Assembly (NCBI GenBank): GCA_963765875.1
Contig: CAVXYK010000023.1
Span: forward strand, 8,802-40,801
From: an uncultured Chloroflexia bacterium
GTDB taxonomy: Bacteria > Chloroflexota > Anaerolineae > Caldilineales > Caldilineaceae
Length of the DNA stretch: 32,000 nt
Direction of reading: 5' to 3'
The notes beneath the pieces are model-generated. The model worked only from the letters and a program-made list of their open reading frames with translations. It did no database searches and was not told the DNA's origin. The position numbers and the translations under genes were made by a program. Each line of letters opens with the position of its first letter. Position 1 is the first letter of the stretch. This document shows positions 7,173 through 29,985 of this stretch, piece after piece.

Positions 7173-9762
7173 ATGTCAGAAACCAAACAACTCACCGTTC
7201 CCGTCATCGGCATGACGTGCGCCAACTGTGTAGCCGCGGTGGAACGGAATAGCATGAAAGCCGAAGGCGTTGATGCCTCTTCGGTCAACTTCGCCAGTGA
7301 AAAGCTGACGATTGAATATGATCCCGAGATCGGCACGTCGCAGGAAGTGCTCGAAGATGTCATACATCGTGTGCAACGGGCCGGCTACCAGATTCCGACT
7401 GCTACATTGGAGCTGCCCATCATCGGCATGACCTGTGCCAATTGCGCCAATACGATTGAGCGCCGCCTGAAAAAGGTGGAGGGTGTGATAGCGGTCAACG
7501 TCAATTTTGCCAATGAAAAGGCGACTATCGACTACGTGGCGGGATTGGCTACCCGCGCCGATCTGGTAGCCGCCGTGCGTCAGGCCGGCTACGACGTGGT
7601 CGAAGTGAGCGGCGATGAAGAGACAATGGAAGATGCCGAAGCTGCCGCCCGCGCCGCCGAAGTACACCATCAGACGAAGCGCTTTGTCGTTGGCGTCATC
7701 TTTACGCTGCCTCTACTCGTGCTCAGCATGGGACGAGATCTGGGCCTTCTCGGGGCCTGGTCCCATGAGAACTGGGTGAACTGGCTCTTCCTAGCCCTGG
7801 CCACACCGGTCCAATTCTACGTCGGCCGCGACTACTATGTGGGCGCCTACAAGTCGCTGCGCAATGGCGCTGCCAACATGGATGTTCTCGTTGCCCTGGG
7901 CACGTCGGTTGCCTATTTTTACAGTGTGGCCGTGCTCATCGCCCTGACCATGGGCTCGACTGTACTGGGCACACACGTCTACTTTGAGACGTCCGCCGCG
8001 ATCATCACATTGATCGTGTTGGGCAAGCTTCTGGAAGCGCGTGCAAAGGGGCAGACCAGCGAGGCCATCAAGAAATTGATGGGCCTGCGTGCCAAGACGG
8101 CGCGCATCGTACGCGATGGCCAAGAGATCGACATGCCCATCGAAGAAGTTGCGGTCGGTGACGTTGTGCTGGTACGTCCCGGCGAAAAGGTTCCTGTGGA
8201 TGGTTTGGTGCTCGAAGGCCGATCCGCAGTGGATGAGAGCATGATCACCGGTGAAAGCCTTCCGGTGGACAAAACACCCGGTGACGAGGTCATTGGCGCC
8301 ACTCTCAACAAGCAGGGACTGCTCAAGTTTGAGGCCACCAAGGTCGGGCGTGAGACGGCCTTGGCCCAGATCATCAAGCTGGTGGAACAGGCGCAGGGGA
8401 GCAAAGCCCCAATCCAACGCCTGGTCGATCAAGTCTCAGCCTACTTCGTACCCGCCGTGATCGTGATCGCTCTGCCTAACCTTCGTTTTCTGGCTGGCCA
8501 TGGGCGCCGGTTTGGTACCTGCGCTGCTGCGTCTGGTCGCGGTGCTGGTCATCGCCTGCCCCTGCGCCATGGGCTTGGCCACGCCTACGTCGATTATGGT
8601 CGGCATGGGCAAGGGAGCGGAGAACGGCATCCTCTTCCGCAGCAGCACGGCGCTGGAGCAGGCCCACCAGCTCACCGCAATCGTGCTCGACAAGACCGGC
8701 ACCATCACCCGCGGTGAGCCGTCTGTCACCGATGTGGTGGTTAGCGATCTGTTCAGGCTGCCGACGCCGCAGTTGGCTGTAGCAGGTGCCGCAGTTGTTG
8801 CCGACGGTACGATGTCGCCCGCAACCAACGGAGCAAGCAACGGCTTCACCAACGGTACCGGTTCTGACCTGGACCGCGAAGAGTATTTGCTGCGCCTGGC
8901 TGCCAGCGCCGAGCGTGGCTCCGAGCATCCTTTGGGAGAGTCCATCGTGCTGGCCGCACAGGAGCGTGGACTATCGTTGAGCGAGCCGGACCGCTTTGAG
9001 GGGGTTGCCGGCCGCGGCATTGAAGCCCACATCGATGGGCGCGACGTGCTCGTGGGCAACCTGAGACTGATGCGCGAGCGGGATGTTGCGCTTAATGAGC
9101 TTGAGCCCAAGGCTCAGCAACTTCAGGACCAGGCCAAGACGGCCATGTGGCTGGCTGTAGATGGACAGGCAAGCGCCCTGATCGCGGTTGCCGATACCAT
9201 CAAGGATAGTTCCAAAGAGGCCGTGGCGGCCATGCACGACATGGGACTGACTGTGGTCATGATGACAGGAGACAACCAGGCTACAGCCGAGGCCATCGCG
9301 TCCGAGGTTGGCATCGGCCGTGTCTTCGCCGAGGTGATGCCTGGTGACAAGGCCGACTATGTTACGCAATTACAGGAAGAAGGCTTCAGCGTTGCCATGG
9401 TAGGCGATGGAATCAACGACGCGCCGGCCCTGGCTCAGGCCGATGTAGGAATGGCCATCGGAACGGGCACGGATGTGGCCATGGAGGCTGCCGATGTCAC
9501 GTTGATGCGTGGTGATCTGCGCAGCGTCTCTCAGGCGATTCACCTCTCCAAAGCGACCATGCGCAACATCAAGCAGAATCTGGGATGGGCCTTTGCCTAC
9601 AACGTGGCGTTGATCCCGATTGCAGCAGGCGTTTTGGCTTTTGCGCCCTGGGCGCCCAGTTGGCTGCGTCAACTGAATCCCATCTTGGCGGCTGGGGCTA
9701 TGGCCTTCAGCAGTATCAGCGTAGTGGCCAACTCCCTGCGCCTCCGTCGGCTCAAGCTGTGA
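7173..9762 (+). CDS. copA: Cu(I)-exporting P1B-1 ATPase CopA with two N-terminal HMA domains; one frame break near 8473-8476
   Basis: Two GMTCANC motifs, TGES, CPC (8557-8565), [17 protein letters not shown]. ORFs 7173-8717 and 8500-9762 join as ..AVIVIAL|[16 protein letters not shown].. if one C is removed from ctgcct. RBS GGAG precedes the ATG. Confidence 0.9.
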
Positions 9763-15591: not shown

Positions 15592-16715
15592 ATGAGTCAA
15601 ATCACCAATGCCCCCAGAGCTAACAACGTGACCGAAGTCTTGGCGGCCAGCGATCATCGTCGGCGGGCTGTTGCTCATCACCTATCTACACTACTCGACC
15701 GCGCCCGGTCTTGTCGGCCTACATGCGGTCTACCGCTATTTCTACTTCCTGCCGATTGTGTATGCTGCGCTGCGTTTCGGCTTACGGGGCGGGCTGCTGG
15801 CGGCATTGGCCGCTTCACTTCTCTTCGCCCCCCACATCGTCTTCAAGTGGGGCAATTTCCCGGAAGACAGCATCAACGACCTGCTTGTTGTCGTCGTCTT
15901 CTTTGGCGTGGCCGTCATCACGGGCGTCACGGTCGACCGCCTGCGCGCGGCCCAGCAAGCCGAGAGCCAGACAGCGGCGGAGTTGGCTGCATCCCTGCGC
16001 AAACTGGAGGAACAGGGCGACGAACTGCGACGGGTTGAGCGACTCAGTGCATTGGGCAATCTGGCGGGTGGATTGGCACACCAGATCCGCAACCCAGTCG
16101 GCATCATCCGTGCCTGTGCACAGCTATTGGAAGCCGACAGCCAAGTGGAGGCTCACGAGACGGCTTTGGTGATCGAAGAGGAGACGGATCGAATCGAAAC
16201 GCTGGTCCAGGATCTGCTGCGCTATGCTGATGCCACTCGTCCGCAATTGGTGCCCACGGATGCCGCGAATTTCCTTGGAGCAGATTGCAATCCGTGTGCA
16301 ACCCATGGCAAACGCGGCCGGCGTTGAAGTCCAGACCGTGAGTGATGCACGCCTGCCACTTGTATTAATCGATTCGAGGCAGATGGAGCAGGTCCTCTTG
16401 AATTTGGCGGTCAATGCAATCCAGGCACTCGATCAAGGAGGGACTGTCGTGTTGGCTGCTCGACAAGGTGAGGACCTGCAACATGTGGAATTCCGGGTCT
16501 CCGATGACGGCCCCGGTATTGACGAGGCGGATCGCCAGCGAATCTTCGATCCCTTCTTCTCTACCAAAGACGGTGGTTCAGGGTTCGGCTTAAGTGTCGT
16601 AAATCGAATTGTGGAAGATCATGGTGCTCGTGTCACGGTTGTTACCGATCCGGATGGGGGAGCGACGTTTGTTGTCTGCCTGTCTGCTGCGCCTCCGCCG
16701 GATGCGTTGATGTAG
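15592..16715 (+). pseudogene. Membrane sensor histidine kinase (DUF4118-like TM domain, HisKA, HATPase_c); two frame breaks
   Basis: YRYFYFLPIVYAALRFGLRGGLLAALAASLLF is a KdpD-type membrane module. H-box LAGGLAHQIRNP. N/G boxes LLNLAVNAIQA, DDGPGI and GSGFGLSV. Breaks lie near 15650 and 16270. Confidence 0.8.
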
Positions 16716-16827: not shown

Positions 16828-18144
16828 ATGGCACGAACAATTCTAGTAATCGACGACGAACGACAATATGCGCTGGGTGCTCGAACGCGCGCTGGCCAAG
16901 GCCGGCTATGACGTAGTCACGGCTGAACGGGGCGAACAGGCCATCCAACGCTTTGCGCGCCATGCGGTCGACCTGGTCTTGCTGGACCTGAAGATGCCCG
17001 GCATGGATGGCATGACGGTGCTACGCGAGCTGAGGCGGCGAGACACGACCGTACCCATCCTGCTCCTGACCGCATACGCCTCAGTGCCTACTGCAGTCGA
17101 AGCGCTTCAGATCGGCGCCTCGGACTACCTGCGCAAGCCATTCGATCTAGAGACCGTTCTCGCCACCATCAATCGGTACATCGCCGATTCCAGTGACGTT
17201 CCCGTGACCGACGAACCGCCGGCGAAAGCGCCTGCATCAGTCGAACCTTTTACCGAGTTCGTCGGCGCAACACCGGTACTGCATGCTGCGTTGACGCGCG
17301 CCAGGGCGGCACAACGAGCGCCATATCCCGTGGTGGTGCGCGGCGAACCGGGTACGGGCCGAAGACATCTTGCGCGTTTGATCCACGCTGGATCAGACGC
17401 AACGGTAGGCAAGAAGCTTGTCGAACTCGATTGTGCCAATCTGCCGCCGGCAGTCATTGCCCACGAACTGTTGATCGAGCCGTCTGCTGACGAAAGCGGG
17501 GGACTTTGGCAACAAGCATTGGGCGGCACGCTCCTGCTATCCAATGTCGAAGCGCTGCACGACAATCTGGTGCAGAAGGCTGTGGACCTGCTTGCCCCAT
17601 ACTTACTCTCCAGCGAGCGCCCGCATGGGTTGCGCCTGTTGCTGACGTCAGAAATGCATTGCAGGAAAGGTGGTCGCAGATTTCGGCGCTCGCTTTTGAT
17701 ATCTTGCTGCCACCGCTGCGCGTTCGTATCGACGATCTTCCTCTGTTGTTGGCACGCTTCGCCCCGGATGCAGTATGGGATCGACAGGTGCTCTTACTGC
17801 TGAGTTCCTACGAGTGGCCGGGCAATGTGGGCGAGCTACAGCGTGTCGTCCAGCAGGCAACCTATCTAGCCGCAGGTGACCCAGTGGGGACTGATCATCT
17901 ACCCAGCAATATTCTGGATACAGACGCCCAAGTTGCCGGCGTTTTTCTGCTACCGCCCGAAGGGATCAACTTGGACAGGGTTGAGGAGAACCTGATCCGA
18001 CAAGCGTTGGAGATGGCCGGCGGAAACAAGACGCAGGCGGCGCGGCTGCTCGGTCTAAGCCGTGCGACGCTGCTCTATCGGATCGACAAGTACGCAATCC
18101 TCGCCGATGATCCGGAGAACCCGGTTGTCGAGCAAGACGAATAG
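16828..18144 (+). pseudogene. NtrC-family response regulator (REC, degenerate AAA+, Fis-type HTH); two frame breaks
   Basis: REC: MARTILVIDDE..LVLLDLKMPGMDG..DYLRKPF. The central domain is recognisable (PPLRVRIDDLPLL, YEWPGNVGELQ) but lacks key motifs. HTH: GGNKTQAARLLGLSRATLLYRIDKY. Breaks lie near 16866 and 17650. Confidence 0.8.
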
Positions 18145-19158: not shown

Positions 19159-19885
19159 ATGACGCCATTGATTGTCGTCGTGGAGGATGACGCTCAGATT
19201 CGACGCGTTGTCGAAGGCTATCTGCAACAGGACGGCTACCGCGTGTTCACCGCCACCGATGGCCCGTCGGCCTTGGCGCTGATCCAGCGCGAGCAGCCGA
19301 CGTTGATCATTCTCGATATCATGTTGCCGGACATGGATGGGCTTGAGATCGCCCGTCGCCTGCGCGCCAGCGACCATCCTGCCGTGGCCGGCGTCTACAT
19401 CATTATGCTCACAGCCCGCGTCGACGAAACGGACCGTGTCATCGGTCTGGAACTGGGCGCAGACGACTATGTGACAAAACCTTTCAGCCCGCGTGAGTTG
19501 GTGGCGCGTGTGCGTTCAGCGTTGCGAAGACTGGATACACAGCAGTTGAACGCCGACACAGGGTCAACTAAAAGCCGGCGATTTGACGCTCGATCCAACG
19601 TACCGCAGCGCTACGCTAGACGGTACGGCAGTCGATCTGACCGCCACCGAGTTCGATCTGTTGAGTCATCTGATGCGCCATCCGGATAGGCCATTCACTC
19701 GCAGCCACCTGCTCGACATCACCCAGCCCGATCCGATTGGCGATAACGCTGCCTACGAACGCACCATCGATGCGCACGTCAAAAACATTCGCCACAAACT
19801 GGGCGACGCCGGGCGGAAGAGCCGTTTCATCGAGACGGTTCACGGCATCGGCTATCGCTTCGTCCAGCAGGACCCGAAGCCATGA
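19159..19885 (+). CDS. OmpR/PhoB-family response regulator; one frame break in an A-run near 19570
   Basis: REC: [28 protein letters not shown]. Winged helix: [50 protein letters not shown]. Its stop overlaps the kinase start as ATGA at 19882-19885. Confidence 0.85.
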
Positions 19886-21290
19886 ACCGTCTCTGGATCA
19901 AGTTGCTGGGCGCGTTCGCTGTGGTCATCCTGATTGGCGTACTCGTCACGGTATTGGTGGCGCGACAGGCGGCAGCAACCCAGCTCTCCCACCTAATGAT
20001 CGGCAATCAGATGGTCAGGCCTGCCTCGTTACAGCAAGCCGTGAACAACTTCTATGCGGAACAGGGCAGTTGGGATGGCATAGACAAGCGCTTGCCGACA
20101 CTCGTGCGCGCTGCCTCGGATGGCGGCATGATGGGGGGATGATGGGCGGGATGATGGGCGGTGCAATGGGGATGTTCGACGGCCGCATCCGCGTCGCCAA
20201 TGTCCACGGAATCATTGTGGCAGACACCGCCGGACAGATCAATGTGCCGTTGGAAACGCAATCAACCGGCACCCAGTTGCCCCTCATGGACGCCAGCAAT
20301 CAGGTCGGTACACTCTACATCGACGGCCCGATAATGACGATGCCGATGGCCAATGATACGGCTCTGATGACCGGACTGACCCGCGCGATTCTGACCGGCG
20401 CTGTGATCGCCGGGCTGGTCGCATTGATCTTGGCGGCCTTTGTCGTGCGTCAGATCACCCGGCCCGTGGTCGAATTGGGCAACGCAGCGCAGCAGATTGC
20501 TGAAGGAGATCTCGCCACCCGCGTGACAATCCGCAGCGGGGATGAACTGGGTGATCTGGCAGGATCATTCAACAGCATGGCCGAGTCGTTGCAGGAACAA
20601 GAGCAGCTACGACGCAATCTGATGGCCGATATCGCGCATGAATTACGAACACCTTTGAGCGGCATCCAGGGCAATATCGAAGCGCTGCAAGACGGTGTTT
20701 TTCCGCTGACCGCCGAGAATCTGGCGCCGATTCACGAACAGACGATCCTGCTCAATCGGCTGGTAGATGATCTGCGCACGCTGGCGCTGGCCGACGCCGG
20801 TGAATTGACGCTGACAATTGAATCGATGGATCTAGGCGAACTGTTGACACGTACGCTTGACAGCTTCCGATCCCAGGCCCACGCGTCGCAGATCAGCATG
20901 AAGGTTGGCGATCTTAACGACGGGTCAACCGTCGTGGTTGCCGGCGACCGAGTACGGCTTAGCCAAGTGGCGACAAACCTCATCGACAATGCGTTGCGCC
21001 ATACATCTTCAGGCGGAACCGTCACGGTTGACATGACCCTTGAAGGAGCGACCGTGCGCTGGTCCGTCACCGACAGCGGTGAGGGCATCGCCGCGGCAGA
21101 CTTGCCCCACATCTTCGATCGGTTCTACCGCGCCGACGGCTCACGCAGCCGTTTGAGTGGTGGCAGCGGGTTGGGCCTGACCATCGTCAAGCAGATTGTC
21201 ACGGCTCACAATGGCGTCATTGATGTGATCAGTCCGCCTCCGGGGGCGCCGCGGGGAACACGGTTCACGGTGACGCTGCCCGCTGTGTGA
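19882..21290 (+). CDS. Sensor histidine kinase (2 TM, Met-rich extracytoplasmic loop, HAMP, HisKA, HATPase_c); one frame break in a G-run at 20133-20138
   Basis: TM1 [23 protein letters not shown]. Loop with [20 protein letters not shown]2 plus HAMP. H-box [15 protein letters not shown] boxes [15 protein letters not shown] and [10 protein letters not shown]. Restoring one G rejoins ORFs 19882-20142 and 19737-21290. Confidence 0.85.
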
Positions 21291-21620
21291 GCCATTTGAT
21301 TGCCTGCAGCGTTATCGCTATGCTCACACCCCGGAACAATGCCTGAGACCTGATTCGAACTCGAGAGAGATGGATAATTTTGCCATCCGCTCAAGTATGA
21401 TTTACGATCCAATATGTCTTACGATCGTACAACTCCGATGATGTGGCGAACCCGTCTGATTCTGGTTGGCCAACAATTGACACCATACGATCTTGCTGGT
21501 TGTTCCCGCGCCCACACAATCGTGGAGCGCGTTTCAGCGCGTTGTTGAGACAGAACCCATTCACAACATCGGGGTAAGCCTGCTGTCCAGACAGTAGGCG
21601 CATTCGCGGAAATCACCTTG

Positions 21621-22215
21621 ATGACAGACTCACTATTTATCGACAACCGAAACCAGCGACCCTCTGATGAGGCCTTACTACGCGCCTGTCGAACGGGCGA
21701 TGCAGCGGCATGGGAGAAACTCCTGAATCGCTACGAGCGGCTGGTCTACTCCATCGCGCGCAATACCGGCCTATCCCCCGAGGACGCCGCCGATATCACG
21801 CAACTCACGTTTAGCTATCTGTTGCAAGGCCTGGACGGCATGACTGATGAAGGCAATCTGCGTGCATGGCTGGCAACCGTGGCCAAACGCCACAGCCGTC
21901 GTCTCCTGGTTCGCCAGCTCCGCTATCAGACATCGGATATCGATGATGAGATCGTCAGCAAGCTTGCTGCCAGGCCAGGCCAAGGCCGATGGGATCGAGC
22001 GTTGGGAACTGGCTGAATGGCTGCGCAGTGGCCTAGAGCGCATCGACGAACGATGCAGACGTCTGCTTCGTGCACTCTATTTCGATCCGGACGAGCCGTC
22101 ATACGCAAACATCGCGTCATCGATCGGCATTGCCGAGGGCAGCGTCGGGCCGATCCGCGCCCGCTGCCTGAAACGACTGCGAGACTCACTGACCGATAGC
22201 GACGGCAACGCTTGA
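21621..22215 (+). CDS. ECF-type sigma-70 family RNA polymerase sigma factor; one frame break near 21960-21990
   Basis: Region 2-like: AAAWEKLLNRYERLVYSIARN..EDAADITQLTF. Region 4-like: LERIDERCRRLLRALYFD..SYANIASSIGIAEGSVGPIRARCLKRLR. Confidence 0.8.
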
Positions 22216-22333
22216 CACCCGTTCGATGCTGAAAGTCAACGTCTGTTCTACGATTGGTGTATTTTTGACCAGCGAATCGTGCAGTTAATGGATAGACATT
22301 GTTGTTTCTTGGTAGCTGTACAGCGGTACACTG

Positions 22334-22428
22334 ATAGACCGCGGATTAGGCGAATTCGGCGGACAAAACCAGATTGATTCGGATTTTATCCGCGAGAATC
22401 AGCCTCATCCGCCAAATCCGCGGTCTAT
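22334..22428. repeat. About 95-bp extended inverted-repeat element between the sigma and anti-sigma-like genes
   Basis: The 19-bp arms ATAGACCGCGGATTAGGCG (22334-22352) and CGCCAAATCCGCGGTCTAT (22410-22428) pair with one mismatch. An inner hairpin TGATTC/GAATCA encloses CGGAT-TTT-ATCCG. Confidence 0.5.
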
Positions 22429-22476
22429 TTGGATCGCAGCCTGAATAGTTACGATTTTTGTGAGCCGAACTCGATT

Positions 22477-23118
22477 ATGGATACAAATCCGATGCCAACT
22501 TGGCAACAATTGATAGACTGGATTGAAGGCAGACTATCGACGGCGGACGCCGCCATCATTGAGCAACAGGTGGCCGGCGCCGACGAAAAGACGCTGGCCG
22601 ATGTTGCCTGGATACGCGCCTTCCTACGCGTCGGCGATGAGATCGTCTTGGACGAACCGCCGGCCGAACTGCGTACTACTCTGCGAGCAAGTTTTGACGC
22701 CTACGCCGGCAAGAAGGTCGCAGAGCGGGAGACTGACGATTCTCCAAATCTACTGAATCGTCTGGTCGCCGCGCTCACATTCGACAGCGGATTGCAGCCC
22801 GGCCTTGCCGGCGCCCGCGCCGGCGATTTAGGCGCGGCTCGCCAACTGATCTACTCGACCGATACGCTCGACCTTTCGCTCAATGTTCAGCATGGGACCG
22901 ATGGCGTGCGCGTCGATGGACAAATTCTCCCGGTCAAAGACCTTACACTTGATGCCTTTCAAGTCCGAATTCAGCAGGGGACCCAGCTTGTGGCAGACAC
23001 GCCTGTCGATCCATACGGCCTCTTCTCTTTCACAAACGTCAGGCCAAACAGCTATCAGTTGCTCCTGAATATCGAAGACCTGAGCGTTTGGATTGATCCC
23101 CTAGATCTGCGTGAATAA
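22477..23118 (+). CDS. Soluble anti-sigma-factor-like protein (N-terminal helical anti-sigma-like segment without Zn ligands, C-terminal beta-sandwich-like region)
   Basis: WQQLIDWIEGRLSTADAAIIEQQVAGADEKTLADVAWIRAF resembles the N-terminus of anti-sigma factors but lacks HxxxCxxC. No TM helix. The C-terminus (GQILPVKDLTLDAFQVRIQQG..GLFSFTNVRPNSYQLLL) resembles a carboxypeptidase-regulatory-like fold. It follows the ECF gene and ends 12 nt before the CHAT gene. Start uncertain: 22429 TTG, 22477 ATG or 22492 ATG. Confidence 0.5.
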   Translation: MDTNPMPTWQQLIDWIEGRLSTADAAIIEQQVAGADEKTLADVAWIRAFLRVGDEIVLDEPPAELRTTLRASFDAYAGKKVAERETDDSPNLLNRLVAALTFDSGLQPGLAGARAGDLGAARQLIYSTDTLDLSLNVQHGTDGVRVDGQILPVKDLTLDAFQVRIQQGTQLVADTPVDPYGLFSFTNVRPNSYQLLLNIEDLSVWIDPLDLRE

Positions 23119-23130
23119 GATCGCACATCC

Positions 23131-26075
23131 ATGACAAACCTTCCCATCGTTGACGAAATCGTGGTGGAGCTGCTGGCTCTGCCCTCATTTACGCACCAGA
23201 TGGAGCTTCTGGTCGCCAACAATCTGGCGGACGAGGCCGGTCTGGCCGAGTTGCTATCCTATGCAGAAAAGGCTGCCCGCCATGATCCGTTGCAGGCGCG
23301 CGCGTTGACGCAGCTCTGTGAACAGGTTGCGATCCAGATCGCCACCCCGGCGCTGGTTCCCCGAGCAAACTACCTGAGCGCACAAACATACGTCCTGCGT
23401 GGGGATGCAGACACGGCCTTGAAACTCATCAAAATCGCCCGCAGCCAGTTCGTCGACCTGGGGATGACGGTGGATGCACTGCGCACCGATGTCGGAGCGA
23501 TGAACACGTTGACAGCGCTCGGGCGATATCACAACGCACTGGAAAGCGGCGGCGCGGCGCTCGCCCAGATCGACAACGCACTTGCAAGTGCGGACCAGGA
23601 GTCCACAGTCGCCCTGAACCTGATCCGTGCCAAGATCCATGATAACCAGGGGCCTGCTCTCTGCGAAATGGGCCGGTTCGAAGAGGCACTGACCGCATAC
23701 GATCGCGCTGAATCGATCTTTGAGTCGTTACAGATGACGGAGGATCAGGTACTTGTCCTGAACAATCGCGGTGTTGCTCTCCGCTATCTTGGCCGCGTGG
23801 ATGAGGCGCTGGACGCGTACCAGCAAGCCGCTGCCCTGTTACCCGACGCCGGATATCTGTATGCGCTGATGTTGAACAACATCGGTGACGCCCACTTGCT
23901 TCTGGGCGATTATCAGGCAAGCTTGGCTGCCCTTGCCGAGGCCCGGCGCGAGTTCTCTACGTTGGATGCGGAGTACGATCTACAGATTTGCATCAGCCAC
24001 ATGGCAGATGCCTACCTTGCGCTCAATCTATATCCGGAAGCGCTTGCGCTCTATCGAGGGGCGGTCGAAAGTCTCGAAACAACCGACTACCAATACTACC
24101 TGGGCAAGGCTCTCTGGGGGATTGGTTCGATCCATATTGCCCTGCTCGAGTTGGACGAGGCTGACGCTGTCCTCAAACAAGCCGTTGAGCTCTTCATCGG
24201 CCTAGACAACGTGCCCATTGCCGCCCAAATCATTCTGGAACAATCCGCTTTGCACGAAGCACGAGGCGATCACTCTACCGCGCTGGATGCGGCACAACAG
24301 GCGCTCGACATGCTTGGTGGTCAAGGATGGCCCGTACAACGTGTCTACGCACATCTGCGCCTGGCAGACTTGCTTCTTCCGGACAGTGAAGAAGCCGAGC
24401 GCCATCTACAACAGGTGGACACTCTGCTTCAAGATGTCGGTCTTCCTCACCTTCGCTACCGCTTCCTCCAGCGTATGGGGCGGGTGCGCCTGCTGCAAGG
24501 CAGAGATGACGAGGCGCAGCAACTGCTCGAAGCGGCAATTGCAGAGATCGAACGACTACGCAGTTCACTCGTCGATGAAGCGATGCTCGTCTCGTTTCAG
24601 CAGGACAAGATGGCAGCGTACGAAGCCCTTATCCAACTCCACCTCCAACGATTGGCCGTGGATCAGAACGACGAGCAGGCACTTCAACGCACTTTCGACC
24701 TCATCGAACGCACCAAGTCGCGTGCTCTGGTCGAACGCATCTCGGGTGCGGTGCATGCGCAAGTGCCAGAAAAGGGAGACACAGAAGGGGAAGACCAAGA
24801 AACGCTAGACCGCCTTCGACGGATACAGAATAGCCTGAACGCGATCTACAGCGATATGCTCGGGCACGACAGCGGCACGCCCGACGAACAGACAATGTCC
24901 GGAGACCGGACATTGCGAATGCGCCAACTCGGCGAACGGGCCACCAAGTTGGAACAGGATCTGACGCAGGTTCGTCTGCAACTGGCCGCACATCAGCGTG
25001 CGTCGGAACCGTTCGAGCAACCGCTGCCGTTGCCTGAAATTCAGGCAAATATGCCCGGCGATCTCAAGATCGTCAGCTATCACATTGCCGGCGACGAGGT
25101 ATTGGCGTTTGTCTTAACACATGACACCATTCATGTTGTCCGCAAGATCAGTTCGACATCAACCGTGCAAGATCAATTGGATCTGCTGGCGTCGCAGTGG
25201 AATCATCTTCGAGCCCGCAGCGCTGTCGTCGAACGCCACATCGCCAGGTTTGAGCGCAACGCACAACACATTCTGCACCAACTCTATCTCAGTCTGCTGG
25301 CGCCGCTCGAACAACTGCTCGGCCTCGACGTGGATGCGTCGGTGGGAAGGATCGTGATCGTGCCCCATGGCCTGTTGCATCAGGCGCCGTTCCAGGCACT
25401 CTATGACGGTGAGCGCTATCTGATCGAGAAGGCGGAGATCTCCTTTGCGCAAAGTGCGACCGTACTCGCTCTCTGCCAACAGCGACAACCACGTCAATCA
25501 GACCAGCTCCTGGTTTTGGGTGTGTCCGATCCCGCTATTCCGGCCGTGGAAGCAGAGGCACTGTCCATAGCCCAAGTGCTGCCACAGGCCGATCTCTTTT
25601 TGAATGAGAAAGCCGGTCTCGAAACCTTGTCTGCCAACGTGTCCGCTTGTCGAGTCCTGCACCTTGCTTGCCACGGACTCTTTCGGACTGACAACCCGAT
25701 GTTTTCAGCCCTGAAACTGTACGATGGATGGTTGACCGCGGCAGACTCTTCAGGGCTCGATCTCGATGGAGCGATTGTCGTGCTCAGCGCCTGTGAATCG
25801 GGACGGGGCGCGGTTCTGGCCGGCGACGAAACGATGGGACTCACGCGAGCGTTCTGGGGGCAGGCGCGGCCACGCTCGTTGTGAGCCAGTGGCTGGTGCA
25901 GGACGACACCGGCGCCATGTTGATGGCGGAATGGTACGCAAGGCTTGCGAGAGGGCAAAACGCTGCTGCTGCGTTGAGAGGCGCTCAGTTGGCCATCAAG
26001 AGTAGTCATCCACATCCTTACTACTGGGCTCCCTTCGTGTTGATCGGCAGCCGCTCTGCTATTTTTGACGAATAG
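23131..26075 (+). CDS. TPR-repeat / CHAT-domain (caspase-like, clan CD) protease; one frame break near 25852-25856
   Basis: About 600 aa of TPR-like helical repeats (..ALKLIKIA.., ..EALTAYDRAESIF.., ..EALDAYQQAAALL.., ..EALALYRGAVESL..). The CHAT core is VLHLACHG (His codon 25672-25674) and VVLSACESGRG (Cys codon 25792-25794). The tail ..LVVSQWLVQDD..YYWAPFVLIG continues in ORF 25881-26075. Confidence 0.85.
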
Positions 26076-26145
26076 GGCCTGATCCCAACGATCGGCCCGA
26101 CGTTGCACGGACTGCCGGTTTCTTATCGGCAAAAGGAGGAAGACG

Positions 26146-27705
26146 TTGCGAAATATCTACCACAAACTACTACTGGTTTGCGTTTTGATTGGATTGTTTC
26201 TGTTTGTAGGGGTTCCGATCGGGCACGCCGATGTCGGAGAAGATGACGATCCGGAGACAACAGAAGTCGTTGTGAAGCTGAATCCGACCGGCGGCACAAA
26301 CATTGAAGCGATCAATGCGGCATATGGCACCATCACAATCGAAGTGCTTGTCGGCAGCGCGGGAATCTACCGGTTGCGCGTGCCCGCAGCCACCACAGCC
26401 GACAAGATCGCCAATGAAATGCAAGGGGACGGACGCCTGCTCTACGCCGAACCAAACTACAGCAGCGAAGCGCCGGAAGGCAACCCACGTCATATCGGCT
26501 CGTGGGGCGGGGCGGATGAGGGCGGATCCGCCGAGCAGTACGCTTTCGACATGCTTGGACTGCCTGATGCTCATCAGTTTAGGCGCGGACAGGGCGTTGT
26601 CGTGGCCGTTCTGGACACAGGCGTCCAGCTCGACCACCCTGATCTGGCCGGCAGTTGGACGACGGCACGCTATGATTTTATCGACGATGACGACAATCCC
26701 ACTGACGTGTCGGATGGTCAGGACAACGACGGCGATGGTCACTTTGATGAGGCGTTTGGCCACGGAACCCACGTGTCGGGCATCGTGCATCTCACGGCGC
26801 CCGAGGCCAAAATCATGCCGCTGCGTGTGCTGGAAGCCGACGGGCACGGCAATATCTTCGTCATTGCTGAGGCGATTCAGTTTGCGGTCGACAACGGGGC
26901 GGATATCATCAGCCTTAGTTTGGGGTCGGCGCAGGAATCAGAGCTGATGGAAGATGTCATAAAGGATGTGATCGAAGCTCACGATGTTGTCGTTGTTGCG
27001 GCCGCCGGTAACTTGGGCAGCAATGAAAAACAGTTCCCGGCATCGGAAGAAGAGGTATTGGCCGTCACGTCCATTGATGAGCGCAGCAGGAAGTCCGACT
27101 TCGCCAACTACGGCGAGTGGATCGACGTCGCTGCGCCGGGCGAGGCCATCCTCAGCTCCTTCCCTGTGAGCGACCAGGCGACATGGAGCGGCACATCGAT
27201 GGCTGTTCCCTTTGTGTCCGGCCATGCTGCCCTGATCCGCAGTGCGCTCCCTGCCATGCAGTCCACCGAGGTCATGGCCTACATTCGGGCATCCGCCCAA
27301 TCACTGGATTCGCTGAACCCGAGTTTTGAAGACGAGCTGGGCACGGGACGGATCAATATCGGCGGCAGCATACGAGCGATATGTACCGAAGACGGCACAT
27401 GCAGCTTGCCAGACCTGACCGGAGAGATTGTCCTTGAATCGCGCGCCGTCGTCGAAAGTCGCCCAGGCGCCGGCTTTGTCGGCGTTTGGACCATCGGCGG
27501 GCACACCTTCGTTGCCGACACGAGTACAGAGATTCGAGAAGAAGATGGAGCCCTTGTCATCGGCGCCTGCGCTGATGTCGAATACCTGAACGCATCACCC
27601 TACACAGCGCTGGAAATTCGCAGTCGCGAACGGGATAAATGTCCTGTCGGTCCGACTATTCCACCATTGAACCGAAATCTATACCTTCCGGTCATCACCC
27701 GCTAA
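26146..27705 (+). CDS. Secreted subtilisin-like S8 serine peptidase with a C-terminal DUF5666-like module and LYLPVITR tail
   Basis: TTG at 26146 behind AGGAGG (26134-26139). Signal peptide MRNIYHKLLLVCVLIGLFLFVGVPIGHA. Propeptide-like region. Asp/His/Ser triad motifs VAVLDTGV, HGTHVSG and SGTSMAVP. Intact 519-aa ORF. Confidence 0.9.
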   Translation: MRNIYHKLLLVCVLIGLFLFVGVPIGHADVGEDDDPETTEVVVKLNPTGGTNIEAINAAYGTITIEVLVGSAGIYRLRVPAATTADKIANEMQGDGRLLYAEPNYSSEAPEGNPRHIGSWGGADEGGSAEQYAFDMLGLPDAHQFRRGQGVVVAVLDTGVQLDHPDLAGSWTTARYDFIDDDDNPTDVSDGQDNDGDGHFDEAFGHGTHVSGIVHLTAPEAKIMPLRVLEADGHGNIFVIAEAIQFAVDNGADIISLSLGSAQESELMEDVIKDVIEAHDVVVVAAAGNLGSNEKQFPASEEEVLAVTSIDERSRKSDFANYGEWIDVAAPGEAILSSFPVSDQATWSGTSMAVPFVSGHAALIRSALPAMQSTEVMAYIRASAQSLDSLNPSFEDELGTGRINIGGSIRAICTEDGTCSLPDLTGEIVLESRAVVESRPGAGFVGVWTIGGHTFVADTSTEIREEDGALVIGACADVEYLNASPYTALEIRSRERDKCPVGPTIPPLNRNLYLPVITR

Positions 27706-27742
27706 AATTACCCCACAACTCGGCGTCTTCATATTGCTGCAA

Positions 27743-27794
27743 TGACCCCAAAAAGCAGGCATGTTTTTGTGAACATGCCTGCTTTTTGGGGTCA
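27743..27794 (+). terminator. 23-bp perfect-stem hairpin terminator after the S8 gene
   Basis: TGACCCCAAAAAGCAGGCATGTT (27743-27765), loop tttgtg, exact complement (27772-27794), followed by TTTAGTATT. Confidence 0.65.
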
Positions 27795-27926
27795 TTTAGT
27801 ATTCCATTTCCACCAATTTCAGAATCTGGTGTATTTTCGCGCCGCCGGTGGTGCAGTTATAGAGCGGAGGACAGCATTGTCCTGCAACTGTCGGGTTTGT
27901 ATTAGTCATGAGCTTGGAGGATAGAA

Positions 27927-29985
27927 ATGGAACGTACCACGAATCAGCGCCACCTACCCACTATTTGGATCGTTGGGGGGGCGCTCCTACTGCTTCTTCT
28001 GACAATCTTGAGTTGGAACAGCGTATTGGCTGCCCCTGTCAATGAGGCCCCGCTCTCAGACGGCGACGTAGAAGTCTACGGCCGCATCGATAGCTTCCCC
28101 GCGGCGCTGACCGGCGATTGGATCGTAGATGGCATCACCTATGTCGCGGATGGCAGTACTGAGTTCAAGCAGGAAGCGGGGCCGTTTGCGGCAAAGAAGT
28201 GTGTGAAGGTCGCCCATTTCCCAGGCACGTCACCCTTGACAGCCAGCGAGATCGAAACGGAAAACGACTCGGACTGTGACGGCACTGTGACCGAAACGCC
28301 GGAGAGTACTGAAACACCGGAGAACACTGAAACACCGGAGAGCACTGAAACACCAGAGAGCACTGAAACACCGGAGAGCACTGAAACACCGGAGAGCACT
28401 GAAACACCGGAGAGCACTGAAACACCGGAGAGCACTGAAACACCGGAGAGCACTGAAACACCGGAGAGCACTGAAACGCCAGCGCCCTCGGAAACGCCTA
28501 CGCCGGACGATGATGAACGCAAGGTGCGTGGCATTGTCGACCGTCTTCCCGACTCCGGCCTGACCGGCACGTGGGTCATCGACGGCGTCGAATACTTGGC
28601 AGACGGCAGCACCGAGTTCGAGCAAAACGATGGACCGTTTGTCGTTGGCGCCTGCGTCGAGGTCGAACTGCACGCGTCAGGCGACCCCGCAGTCATCGAT
28701 GAGATCGAGACCGAGCATATGGGGCACTGCCAGGGAACGCCGACATCAACGCCCGGAGCAACGGGCACCCCTGACAACGAAGAGGAAATCTACGGTCGTG
28801 TCGATAGCTTCCCAGCGGGTCTAGTCGGTAACTGGATCGTAAACGGCACAACCTACGCTGCCGATTCCAATTCTGAATTCGAACAAGAGCATGGCCCATT
28901 CGTCGCCGGCGCCTGCATCAAAATCCACGCCGACACGAGCATGTCCCCCCCGTCCATGCCGCGAAGTTGAGACAGAGCATGAATACCGTTGCGGCAGCGA
29001 CAGTACGCCTCCGACTACGCCGGAAGCGGAGATGTACGGCGCGATCCAGAGCTTTCCCGAAGGCTTGGTCGGAACCTGGAACATCGGTGGTATGACCTTT
29101 ACTGTTGATGGAGGCACCGAATTTGACCAGGAACATGTCTCATTTGGGATCGGTGTTACAGTGAAAGTACATTTCATCACCCGGGATGATGGTACCCACT
29201 ACGCACGTGAAATCGAAACGAAATTCCAGACCGACAGCGATGACGATGATGGCGACGGCGAGTTTGAGGGCGCTGAGGGTCATTCCTACGGCGTCATCAC
29301 TGCTTTGCCGGACAGTTTGATCGGCGAATGGACCGTTGGCGGCATAAAGTACACGGCAACCGCGCAGACACGGTTCGAAGAGGAGGACGGTGGGTTCGCG
29401 ACCGGCGCTCAGGCCAAGGTCGAATATGTGACGCGCAATGGTGAGCGTGTCGCACGCAAGATCGAAATGACTTCGGCCAATGGCGAAGTCTCGGATGACG
29501 AACATGCCAGGCTCTTCGGATATGTTCGGAAGATGCCTGCAAACGGTTTCGTCGGCGCATGGACCATTGATGACACTGCTTTTTCTGCAGATGCAGCAAG
29601 TCGCTATCAAGAGGATCACGGTCTGCTGGGGCTGGGCGCTTTTGTATCGGTTGAATATACGCTACAGGATGGCAAACTGCTCATTCACGAACTTGAGACC
29701 CATGTGCCCCCTGGGGCGGGAAGTGACGATGCGGTTGGCCGAATTGAGGGTAACGGCGATGGTAGCGTGGTTGCCGCTATGCAATCAGGGGCTTGGCGCA
29801 TCGGCGGTGTAGCATACCAGGTATCACCGGTAACGAATTTAGATGATGCTGCAGCGCCCTTGACAGTCGGTGCGTTGGTGACAGTCAACAGCTACGATGA
29901 CGTCAACGGCAACCGAGTCGCCACCCAGATTCGCAGCATTCGTGTCGGCGATCAACGGATATTCTTGCCTGTGGTGATTCGCTAA
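27927..29985 (+). CDS. Secreted protein with seven DUF5666-like beta-modules, a TETPES linker and an IFLPVVIR tail; one frame break in a C7 run (28945-28951)
   Basis: RBS GGAGGA and a signal peptide (..IWIVGGALLLLLLTILSWNSVLA). Seven repeats follow the pattern [FY]G.[IV].S.P..L.G.W.[IV].G..[YF].....TEF....G.F..G..[VI].[VI]......A.E[IV]E. ORFs 27927-28970 and 28891-29985 join within module 3. Confidence 0.75.
28290..28505 (+). repeat. In-frame 18-bp tandem repeat (ACTGAAACACCGGAGAGC, encoding TETPES): 10 near-identical plus 2 degenerate units
   Basis: Units are counted directly from 28290. Units 3 and 5-10 are identical. Unit 4 differs by one base and units 1-2 by a few bases. Confidence 0.9.

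Follow-up and report, generated by a model that had tools for sequence, protein, structure and literature searches.

We analysed a 32,000-nucleotide (nt) stretch of contig CAVXYK010000023.1 from an uncultured Chloroflexia bacterium (the window, here always at its full length) and found in it a four-gene signalling cassette conserved in several phyla, here in a Chloroflexota (Caldilineales-like) version. The cassette encodes a sigma factor of the extracytoplasmic function (ECF) class, a small soluble protein that we call X, a large TPR-CHAT protein and an S8 subtilase, and it probably controls secreted proteins via anti-sigma factor proteolysis. In the explanation that we favour, with a confidence falling just short of even, X holds the sigma factor, TPR-CHAT cuts X in response to a cytoplasmic cue and the freed sigma factor turns on its regulon. 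Genes were taken from a six-frame listing of open reading frames (ORFs) and from three-frame translation, with split frames joined. An earlier sequence-only reading of this DNA had described five co-directional genes; these were recovered on the + strand at 21618–29985, the fifth encoding a DUF5666 repeat protein, but three of the five are not continuous ORFs.

X as encoded in the window had no Pfam match, no cysteine and a single histidine, and its Kyte–Doolittle maximum over 19 residues was 1.07, which leaves no transmembrane (TM) helix and bears out the earlier description of the protein as soluble. Three parts could be distinguished: an N-terminal four-helix anti-sigma domain (amino acids (aa) 8–84) without zinc ligands, a linker (aa ~95–120) and a beta-sandwich (aa 121–210). 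Homologues from Acidobacteriota carry H-x3-C-x2-C in the aligned N-terminal helix, for example RAHLADCTTCSAQ, where the window protein has QQVAGADEKT. P0033, the most distant homologue found by word-index search, matched zf-HC2 and has kept the zinc motif. Because distant homologues carry zf-HC2 or H-x3-C-x2-C, we rank X as an anti-sigma-type protein, as the sequence-only reading had supposed. By homology it is a soluble class-I anti-sigma factor, of the zinc-binding anti-sigma (ZAS) type, that has lost its zinc ligands and would bind the sigma factor. The X gene adjoins the sigma gene in all loci scanned.

An AlphaFold model of X built from 31 sequences had a mean predicted local distance difference test score (pLDDT) of 76.6, with N-terminal helices at residues 9–16, 22–33, 37–55 and 63–84 and the beta-sandwich at 121–210 (pLDDT ~90). 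Residues 98–118 were predicted to be disordered (pLDDT < 50). Of the 31 alignment columns that are invariant or nearly so, 13 lie in residues 95–124; in the linker RLVAALTFDSGLQPGLAGAR, L100, D103 and R114 are invariant. The core FDS...G-x-R is kept across the sampled phyla, with only Gly-x-Arg clear in Nocardioides. We regard linker residues 95–114 as a candidate docking or cleavage site for CHAT, with any cut predicted within FDSGLQPGLAGAR. For the C-terminal part, homologues of X matched PF13620 and PF22904, a CarboxypepD_reg-type domain, and the X profile matched the immunoglobulin (Ig)-like repeats of NOMO2 (3e-8). A fold search of the PDB with the X model returned generic Ig-like/FN3 sandwiches only, none at E ≤ 0.001, and was uninformative on the anti-sigma domain. 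When the X profile was compared with the PDB up to E = 10, with Csx30 chains (for example 8eey) included, no Csx30 was found.

The TPR-CHAT protein matched CHAT (PF12770, 1e-62) and gave many TPR matches in Pfam, with a TPR solenoid at aa ~8–540 (~13 TPR pairs) and the CHAT domain at aa ~739–973; neither a signal peptide nor a TM helix was detected. The earlier report of an intact His/Cys dyad held at both codons, and the dyad, His848/Cys888, is conserved in 54 of 54 relatives, which share ~45 % identity over 99 % of the length. The AlphaFold model (pLDDT 85.8, predicted template modelling score 0.81) has a helical region with a small beta insert between the TPR and CHAT domains. Its best structural matches in the PDB were Csx29 (8eey_B, 1.5e-14), separase and the anti-sigma factor DdvA (8rot_A, 2.8e-12). 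By sequence, PDB matches covered the CHAT domain only (E 2e-5), again with Csx29 as the best, and the NCBIfam Csx29 model NF041237 scored 45 bits against a cutoff of 300. Residues 890–901 (window ~25798–25833), directly after Cys888, form a disordered loop that is the lowest-confidence part of the CHAT domain (pLDDT ~33) and occupies the position of the caspase activation or intersubunit loop.

The 12-nt spacer reported between X and CHAT was also confirmed. In eight loci read in detail the X–CHAT spacing ran from −4 to +12 nt, and the sigma–X gap from 80 to 261 nt. The CHAT gene is coupled with the anti-sigma gene X, not with the sigma gene.

We then examined conservation across genomes. A word-index search with X gave only 33 homologues, every one of them on a Caldilineaceae or Anaerolineae-like metagenome contig. 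In all six neighbourhoods found through X the genes run sigma, X, TPR-CHAT, S8, the flanks are unrelated and cas genes are absent. The nearest relatives of the cassette are metagenome-assembled genomes (MAGs) of Chloroflexia and Caldilineaceae. A GTDB-wide scan with the X alignment yielded 63 loci spanning Chloroflexota, Actinomycetota (Rubrobacter, Acidimicrobiia, Nocardioides and uncultured lineages), Acidobacteriota (Pyrinomonadaceae and Blastocatellia), one Planctomycetota and two Burkholderiales. When the window proteins were compared by phmmer with six-frame ORFs, the core order was kept in essentially every sufficiently long locus (~60 loci). The exceptions were the planctomycete, with S8 upstream of sigma, and several loci including Nocardioides, where phmmer detected no downstream S8; the two Burkholderiales contigs end after X, leaving only sigma and X visible. 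The reverse test agreed, as two CHAT homologues of 43–45 % identity sit in the same arrangement. An exhaustive profile search with X returned 337 representative clusters (50 % identity) at E ≤ 1e-30, a number that includes long multi-repeat proteins matching the beta-sandwich only; more than 100 of the top 150 clusters are full-length X-like proteins of 200–220 aa. The neighbourhood thus recurs in relatives, as had been asked of it, in its four-gene core but not in its fifth gene, which follows S8 only in the closest relatives (L008–L011). The conserved core is four genes, and the seven-module DUF5666 protein is variable cargo.

No cas gene or CRISPR array was found in a scan of the window, and the ±8–10 kb around ~70 related loci, whose contigs reach 2.9 Mb, likewise contained no Cas7-11, other cas gene or array; the flanking genes differ everywhere. 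PADLOC had no match for sigma, X or CHAT, and a search of the window against Rfam found no RNA family. The claim that the cassette stands alone and is CRISPR-independent was upheld over this range.

Comparison of intergenic regions revealed a bipartite promoter-like motif, YGTATTT(T)-N15/16-GCA(C/T)T(G/T)(T/A)T. The window contains exactly two copies, both on the + strand: P1, before X (22258) and inside the 261-nt sigma–X gap, and P2, before the DUF5666 gene (27830), which lies past a terminator-like hairpin and 97 nt ahead of the start codon. Across 68 loci (874 kb) there were 88 matches on the + strand: 45 preceded X, 14 lay in the CHAT–S8 interval and 27 followed closely on S8. Thus 86 of 88 fell at the three cassette positions, versus nine matches on the − strand, several of which face divergent genes beside sigma. 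The motif was seen in Chloroflexota, Acidobacteriota and some Actinomycetota (L003–L069), and its −10-like half varies by clade, reading GCAyTkwT in Chloroflexota and GCACTGTT in Acidobacteriota. From its positions, the TGTATTTT-N15-GCA motif is likely to be the target promoter of the cassette sigma factor and to define its regulon. Since in the window the motif sits before X and not before S8, X–CHAT–S8 looks like one sigma-dependent operon, with sigma expressed separately. The sequence-only reading had expected a sigma promoter in front of 26146 or 27927; the second of these was found, while the other copy precedes X and not 26146.

Upstream of the sigma gene the motif was not found, and only a weak sigma70-like match (21380–21408) was present there. 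Autoregulation of sigma through the motif was rejected, as no copy lies 5′ of its gene. We also rejected GTATCAG-N12-20-CTCC as the cassette promoter; its sole match in the window, at 9713, is unrelated to the cassette. The Nocardioides form (L052, L056, L062) lacks the GTATTT motif and has in its place a conserved GGAACGC...GCGTTCC palindrome upstream of sigma; the TPR part of its CHAT protein is unrecognisable by similarity. In the window, the X leader carries an insertion of ~134 nt between P1 and the start codon, with 30-nt inverted arms that would form a long hairpin (−64.8 kcal/mol, z = −3.3). The insertion is window-specific: it is not in the 91 % identical relative (L001/L008) and has no second copy in the window. 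It may represent a small mobile element of the palindromic kind, or else a leader structure.

The explanation that we favour draws on precedents in which a protease acts on an anti-sigma factor to release an ECF sigma factor, namely Craspase/Csx30/CASP-sigma, CalpL/CalpT/CalpS and DdvA. The sigma gene would be expressed from its own promoter, and its product would be held by the N-terminal anti-sigma domain of X. Made together from tightly coupled genes, X and TPR-CHAT would constitute a substrate and its sensor-protease, with the 13-repeat TPR solenoid reading a cytoplasmic cue and switching on the CHAT dyad. CHAT would then cut the disordered linker (...FDS...G-x-R...) that joins the anti-sigma domain of X to its beta-sandwich, a cleavage that we consider plausible. 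Sigma, freed by the cut or only once the remainder of X has been degraded, would bring RNA polymerase to TGTATTTT-N15-GCAnTnT promoters. Such promoters would drive the X–CHAT–S8 operon, giving feedback and resetting the switch, and also a second sigma-dependent unit, which would supply the DUF5666 exoprotein here and M6/S8 proteases or GT28/GT4 glycosyltransferases in other genomes. The output would be a programme of secreted proteases and envelope remodelling. In its broadest form, as a free-standing, CRISPR-independent switch in at least four phyla in which TPR-CHAT cuts the linker of a soluble anti-sigma factor to turn on secreted proteases and envelope glycosylation, the proposal is tentative, and we put it clearly below an even chance.

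Several findings weigh against this explanation. Recognition of the motif by the sigma factor is read from position only. The CHAT and S8 genes lie downstream of a putative sigma-dependent promoter, so that they could be outputs and not regulators. Homologues of X in Acidobacteriota keep their zinc ligands, and redox could inactivate X there without any protease. In Nocardioides the coupling is not absolute, as the TPR part of CHAT and the FDS linker have diverged and S8 does not follow. Finally, frameshifts interrupt sigma, CHAT and the DUF5666 gene in the window, and this copy would be dead if the shifts were real.

The main rival model takes up the second and third of these points. According to it, TPR-CHAT is an output and not the switch: X is inactivated in another way (for instance when its ZAS-type domain is oxidised, through a partner protein or by Clp/Lon degradation), the freed sigma factor induces X–CHAT–S8 and the cargo, and CHAT acts on other cytoplasmic substrates, for instance in the processing or maturation of products of the regulon, or as a suicide protease. 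The motif 5′ of X–CHAT–S8 places CHAT inside the regulon, and H-x3-C-x2-C is retained in Acidobacteriota; there are also precedents for soluble anti-sigma factors degraded by general proteases, such as RsrA, RsdA and RseA of Mycobacterium tuberculosis. However, anti-sigma genes commonly belong to the regulon of their own sigma factor, so position cannot separate a regulator from an output. Furthermore, the Chloroflexota and Actinomycetota X proteins examined have no zinc ligands yet keep the disordered linker, and the X gene is coupled to CHAT rather than to sigma. We consider this model unlikely, although it deserves serious weight.

The sigma factor itself bears on another alternative. It matched Sigma70_r2 (8e-10) and r4 (0.004) in Pfam and TIGR02937 at 75 bits (cutoff 43), and aligned over its full length with E. 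coli sigmaE (1or7), having only the sigma2 and sigma4 domains of an ECF (group IV) factor. Cys24, Cys147 and Cys184 are conserved in the family, the latter two in sigma4, and the linker between sigma2 and sigma4 is variable. The sigma profile search was saturated, with at least 7240 matches, mostly unnamed metagenome proteins, and no ECF54 reference sequence was among the matches listed. According to the idea found in the literature on the ECF54 group of sigma factors, the proteases would act directly on sigma: CHAT or the subtilase would control its abundance or activate a pro-sigma, with no functional anti-sigma factor, and X would be a beta-sandwich accessory. The published descriptions of ECF54, with their 'lack of putative AS factor' (AS, anti-sigma) and a group 'regulated by proteolysis', agree with such a scheme, as do the three conserved cysteines and the variable linker of the sigma family. 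Direct proteolysis of sigma is nevertheless less likely because an anti-sigma domain was found, the N-terminus of X being homologous to zinc-binding anti-sigma domains. In addition, comparison with 1or7 showed neither an N- nor a C-terminal extension hinting at a pro-form, and S8, with its signal peptide and prodomain, is expected to act outside the cell. We judge this alternative improbable.

The S8 protein matched a Fervidolysin N-terminal prodomain and Peptidase_S8 (7e-46) in Pfam; it begins with a signal-like helix, and the Asp/His/Ser triad motifs are visible in the translation. The downstream protein matched DUF5666 (1e-51), shows seven modules by eye and also has an N-terminal signal-like helix. 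Residues ~446–491 of S8 (27480–27620) form a weak DUF5666-like module (Pfam E 0.0053; phmmer matches in L008–L011). As the seven modules of the downstream protein are of this type too, the sequences suggest a binding or anchoring domain common to both exoproteins. S8 ends in ...YLPVITR and the DUF5666 protein in ...FLPVVIR, a common C-terminal tail, (I/L/V)(Y/F)(L/I/M)P(V/L/F)(V/I)x(R/Q/N)-COOH, encoded at 27685–27705 and 29965–29985. The tail is confined to Chloroflexota loci (L008–L011, L016–L018) and may be a lineage-specific sorting or secretion tag. Modules 1 and 2 of the DUF5666 protein are separated by a (TETPES)n linker (x10), encoded by an 18-nt tandem repeat at 28293–28477 (10.3 copies, 96 % matches). 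Elsewhere the slot after S8 holds different cargo by lineage with the same motif before it (L003, L006, L013, L015, L019, L020, L024, L041, L071). The cargo includes GT28 and GT4 glycosyltransferases, M6 InhA-like metalloproteases, an extra S8 with PPC/PKD domains, ATP-grasp or PIG-L enzymes and small secreted proteins. The features of the locus are collected in Table 1.

Table 1. Positions of the cassette genes, their candidate control elements and other features in the window.
Feature	Position	Strand	Details
ECF sigma gene	21618/21621–22215	+	~199 aa after correction of a 1-nt frameshift near 21975–21990
Motif P1, promoter-like, bipartite	22258–22288	+	TGTATTTTT (22258–22266), 14-nt gap, GCAGTTAA (22281–22288); in the sigma–X intergenic gap
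Inverted-arm insertion in the X leader	22334–22428	+	Arms 22334–22363 and 22399–22428, 30 nt each
Gene X, putative soluble anti-sigma factor	22477–23118	+	213 aa
Codons of the X linker, aa 95–114	22759–22818	+	RLVAALTFDSGLQPGLAGAR; most conserved stretch of X
TPR-CHAT gene	23131–26075	+	981 aa after correction of a 1-nt deletion at ~25853
Span of the catalytic dyad	25672–25794	+	His848 codon 25672–25674, Cys888 codon 25792–25794
Secreted subtilase S8 gene	26146–27705	+	519 aa
Terminator-like hairpin downstream of S8	27745–27792	+	20 paired positions
Motif P2, promoter-like, bipartite	27830–27860	+	TGTATTTT (27830–27837), 15-nt gap, GCAGTTAT (27853–27860); upstream of the DUF5666 gene
Seven-module DUF5666 repeat gene, secreted product	27927–29985	+	685 aa after correction of a 1-nt indel, C8 run at ~28940
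Split regions outside the cassette	7173–9762, 15671–16715, 16868–18144, 19159–19885, 19737–21290		

The three interrupted cassette genes, sigma, CHAT and the DUF5666 gene, are each split by a single-base frameshift; in CHAT one T is missing relative to an intact relative of 91 % identity. At least five further genes of the window are split likewise (a copper P-type ATPase, two histidine kinases, and NtrC-type and OmpR-type regulators), making at least eight split genes in the 32 kb. The shifts that we examined sit in short homopolymers or short repeats (G7, G5, C8, A4 and CCAGGCCAGGCC). One frameshift coincides with a GGMMGG-coding tandem repeat (period 11–12 nt, 20119–20161) inside a histidine kinase gene. 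The window-wide pattern of split genes is typical of uncorrected long-read assembly errors. Relatives have uninterrupted CHAT genes of 975–986 aa and S8 genes of 519 aa. Since unrelated genes of the window are split alike and the genes of relatives are intact, the shifts are most likely assembly indel errors and not decay of the locus. Were they real, the locus would be a decaying pseudogene cluster whose cassette does not function in the source organism. That three of the five genes are frameshifted fits this view, as does the database copy of the CHAT ORF (P0299, 917 aa, 100 % identical, on a 61.7-kb contig), which shows the same truncation. However, the splitting of at least five unrelated genes and the location of three of the five examined shifts in G7, G5 or C8 runs speak against decay, and, the shifts aside, every frame is intact and conserved, free of stop codons and other signs of decay. 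The nearest relatives are themselves MAG assemblies, and fragmentation is seen in one of them (L007) as well. We therefore give decay little credence.

Lastly we compared the cassette with known systems. Craspase consists of Cas7-11/gRAMP, Csx29 (a TPR-CHAT protein), Csx30 and CASP-sigma/RpoE (PMC10028731). Both systems combine a TPR-CHAT protease with an inhibitor of sigma and with an ECF-type sigma factor that has its motif inside its own locus, and Csx29 is the best structural match of the window CHAT. In contrast, Cas7-11, CRISPR RNA, an array and Csx31 are not present here; the window CHAT has ~14 % identity, falls outside the Csx29 family and is ~250 aa longer with a much larger TPR solenoid; the putative inhibitor joins a classical anti-sigma domain to a beta-sandwich and is unrelated to Csx30; and the output here would be secreted proteases and envelope enzymes, not defence genes. 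The likeness to Csx29 and Csx30 on which the sequence-only reading had built thus extends to logic and fold but not to the family score or to X, and we call the resemblance an analogy at those two levels, short of membership in the family. That the locus is an ordinary accessory module of a type III-E Craspase, with Cas7-11 and an array beyond the window, is suggested by Csx29 being the best structural and PDB-sequence match of CHAT, but the 45 bits against a cutoff of 300, an X that is an anti-sigma-domain protein and not Csx30, the ~70 cas-free loci with ever-different flanks and the silence of PADLOC on sigma, X and CHAT leave such a remnant effectively excluded.

In DdvA of Myxococcus xanthus an anti-sigma domain is fused to TPR-CHAT, and cleavage of the anti-sigma domain by CHAT has been proposed as the activating step (PMC11506125). 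As in DdvA–DdvS, an anti-sigma domain would be functionally joined here to a TPR-CHAT with a His/Cys dyad, and DdvA is a structural match of the window CHAT (E 2.8e-12). DdvA is, however, one TM polypeptide with a periplasmic TPR-CHAT and a zinc-bound anti-sigma domain, followed by RseP intramembrane proteolysis, whereas X and CHAT of the window are separate soluble proteins, predicted to be cytoplasmic, neither with a TM helix. No sequence relationship was detectable in the PDB sequence search, and the regulon comprises CBASS (cyclic-oligonucleotide-based antiphage signalling) and CRISPR genes there and would comprise exoproteins here. Switchable, substrate-specific proteolysis is a property of both Csx29 and separase, and DdvA has been proposed to show a similar signal-induced activity.

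CalpL–CalpT–CalpS offers the same scheme of a soluble, signal-activated protease that cleaves a soluble anti-sigma factor and frees an ECF-like sigma factor. CalpL differs in being a SAVED-Lon protease activated by cyclic tetra-adenylate (cA4) and linked to type III CRISPR, and the proteins are unrelated to those of the window. In classical regulated proteolysis, as in DegS/RseP–RseA–sigmaE and RsiW–sigmaW, membrane-spanning anti-sigma factors are cut by periplasmic and intramembrane proteases. There, as proposed here, site-specific proteolysis frees an ECF sigma factor from the class-I anti-sigma domain that held it; the difference is that everything upstream of sigma would be cytoplasmic in our cassette and the candidate protease has a caspase fold. 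If the proposal in its broadest form is true, a classical anti-sigma domain would for the first time have a soluble 'site-1 protease' with a caspase fold, namely TPR-CHAT, and the cassette could stand for the sort of module from which type III-E systems and DdvA drew their protease–sigma logic. Confirmation of the explanation that we favour would mean that caspase/separase-fold proteases control transcription in ordinary signalling, beyond CRISPR-linked defence, and would provide a compact protease-to-sigma switch for engineering.

The ECF54 group has reportedly been listed since 2015, by Huang. It has been described as 100 % Actinobacteria, with a carboxypeptidase regulatory-like domain always at +1 and subtilase, CHAT and TPR proteins nearby (subtilase at +2/−1, CHAT at +3/−2), a 'lack of putative AS factor', two cysteines in sigma4 and the promoter GTATCAG-Xn-CTCC (Casas-Pastor 2021, bioRxiv 10.1101/2019.12.11.873521). 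A review lists it among sigma factors 'regulated by proteolysis', as a proposal (PMC8999054). The cassette shares with ECF54 a sigma factor with sigma2 and sigma4 only, a CarboxypepD_reg protein at +1 (the domain is seen in X homologues, profile and model, the window X alone having no Pfam match), TPR/CHAT and subtilase genes, the cysteine pair in sigma4 (C147 and C184 here) and a −35 element beginning with GTAT; the window-type cassette also occurs in Actinomycetota. It differs in that the window copy comes from Chloroflexota as against a published group of Actinobacteria only, in its CHAT at +2 and subtilase at +3, in a motif (TGTATTTT-N15-GCA) that has only GTAT in common with GTATCAG-Xn-CTCC, and in the ZAS-type anti-sigma domain of its +1 protein, where none has been published. 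The neighbourhood matches the published ECF54 context, membership being assessed by gene context. The novelty implied by the sequence-only reading did not survive this comparison, as proteolysis had already been proposed for this context; overall, its observation was partly confirmed and its interpretation partly supported. Collectively, the cassette is a variant of a catalogued, experimentally uncharacterised neighbourhood and not categorically new. The present analysis turns the proteolysis guess made for ECF54 into a specific model, with the +1 protein as the putative anti-sigma factor, a conserved linker predicted to be disordered, CHAT–X coupling and a probable promoter and regulon that are legible in the loci of several phyla.

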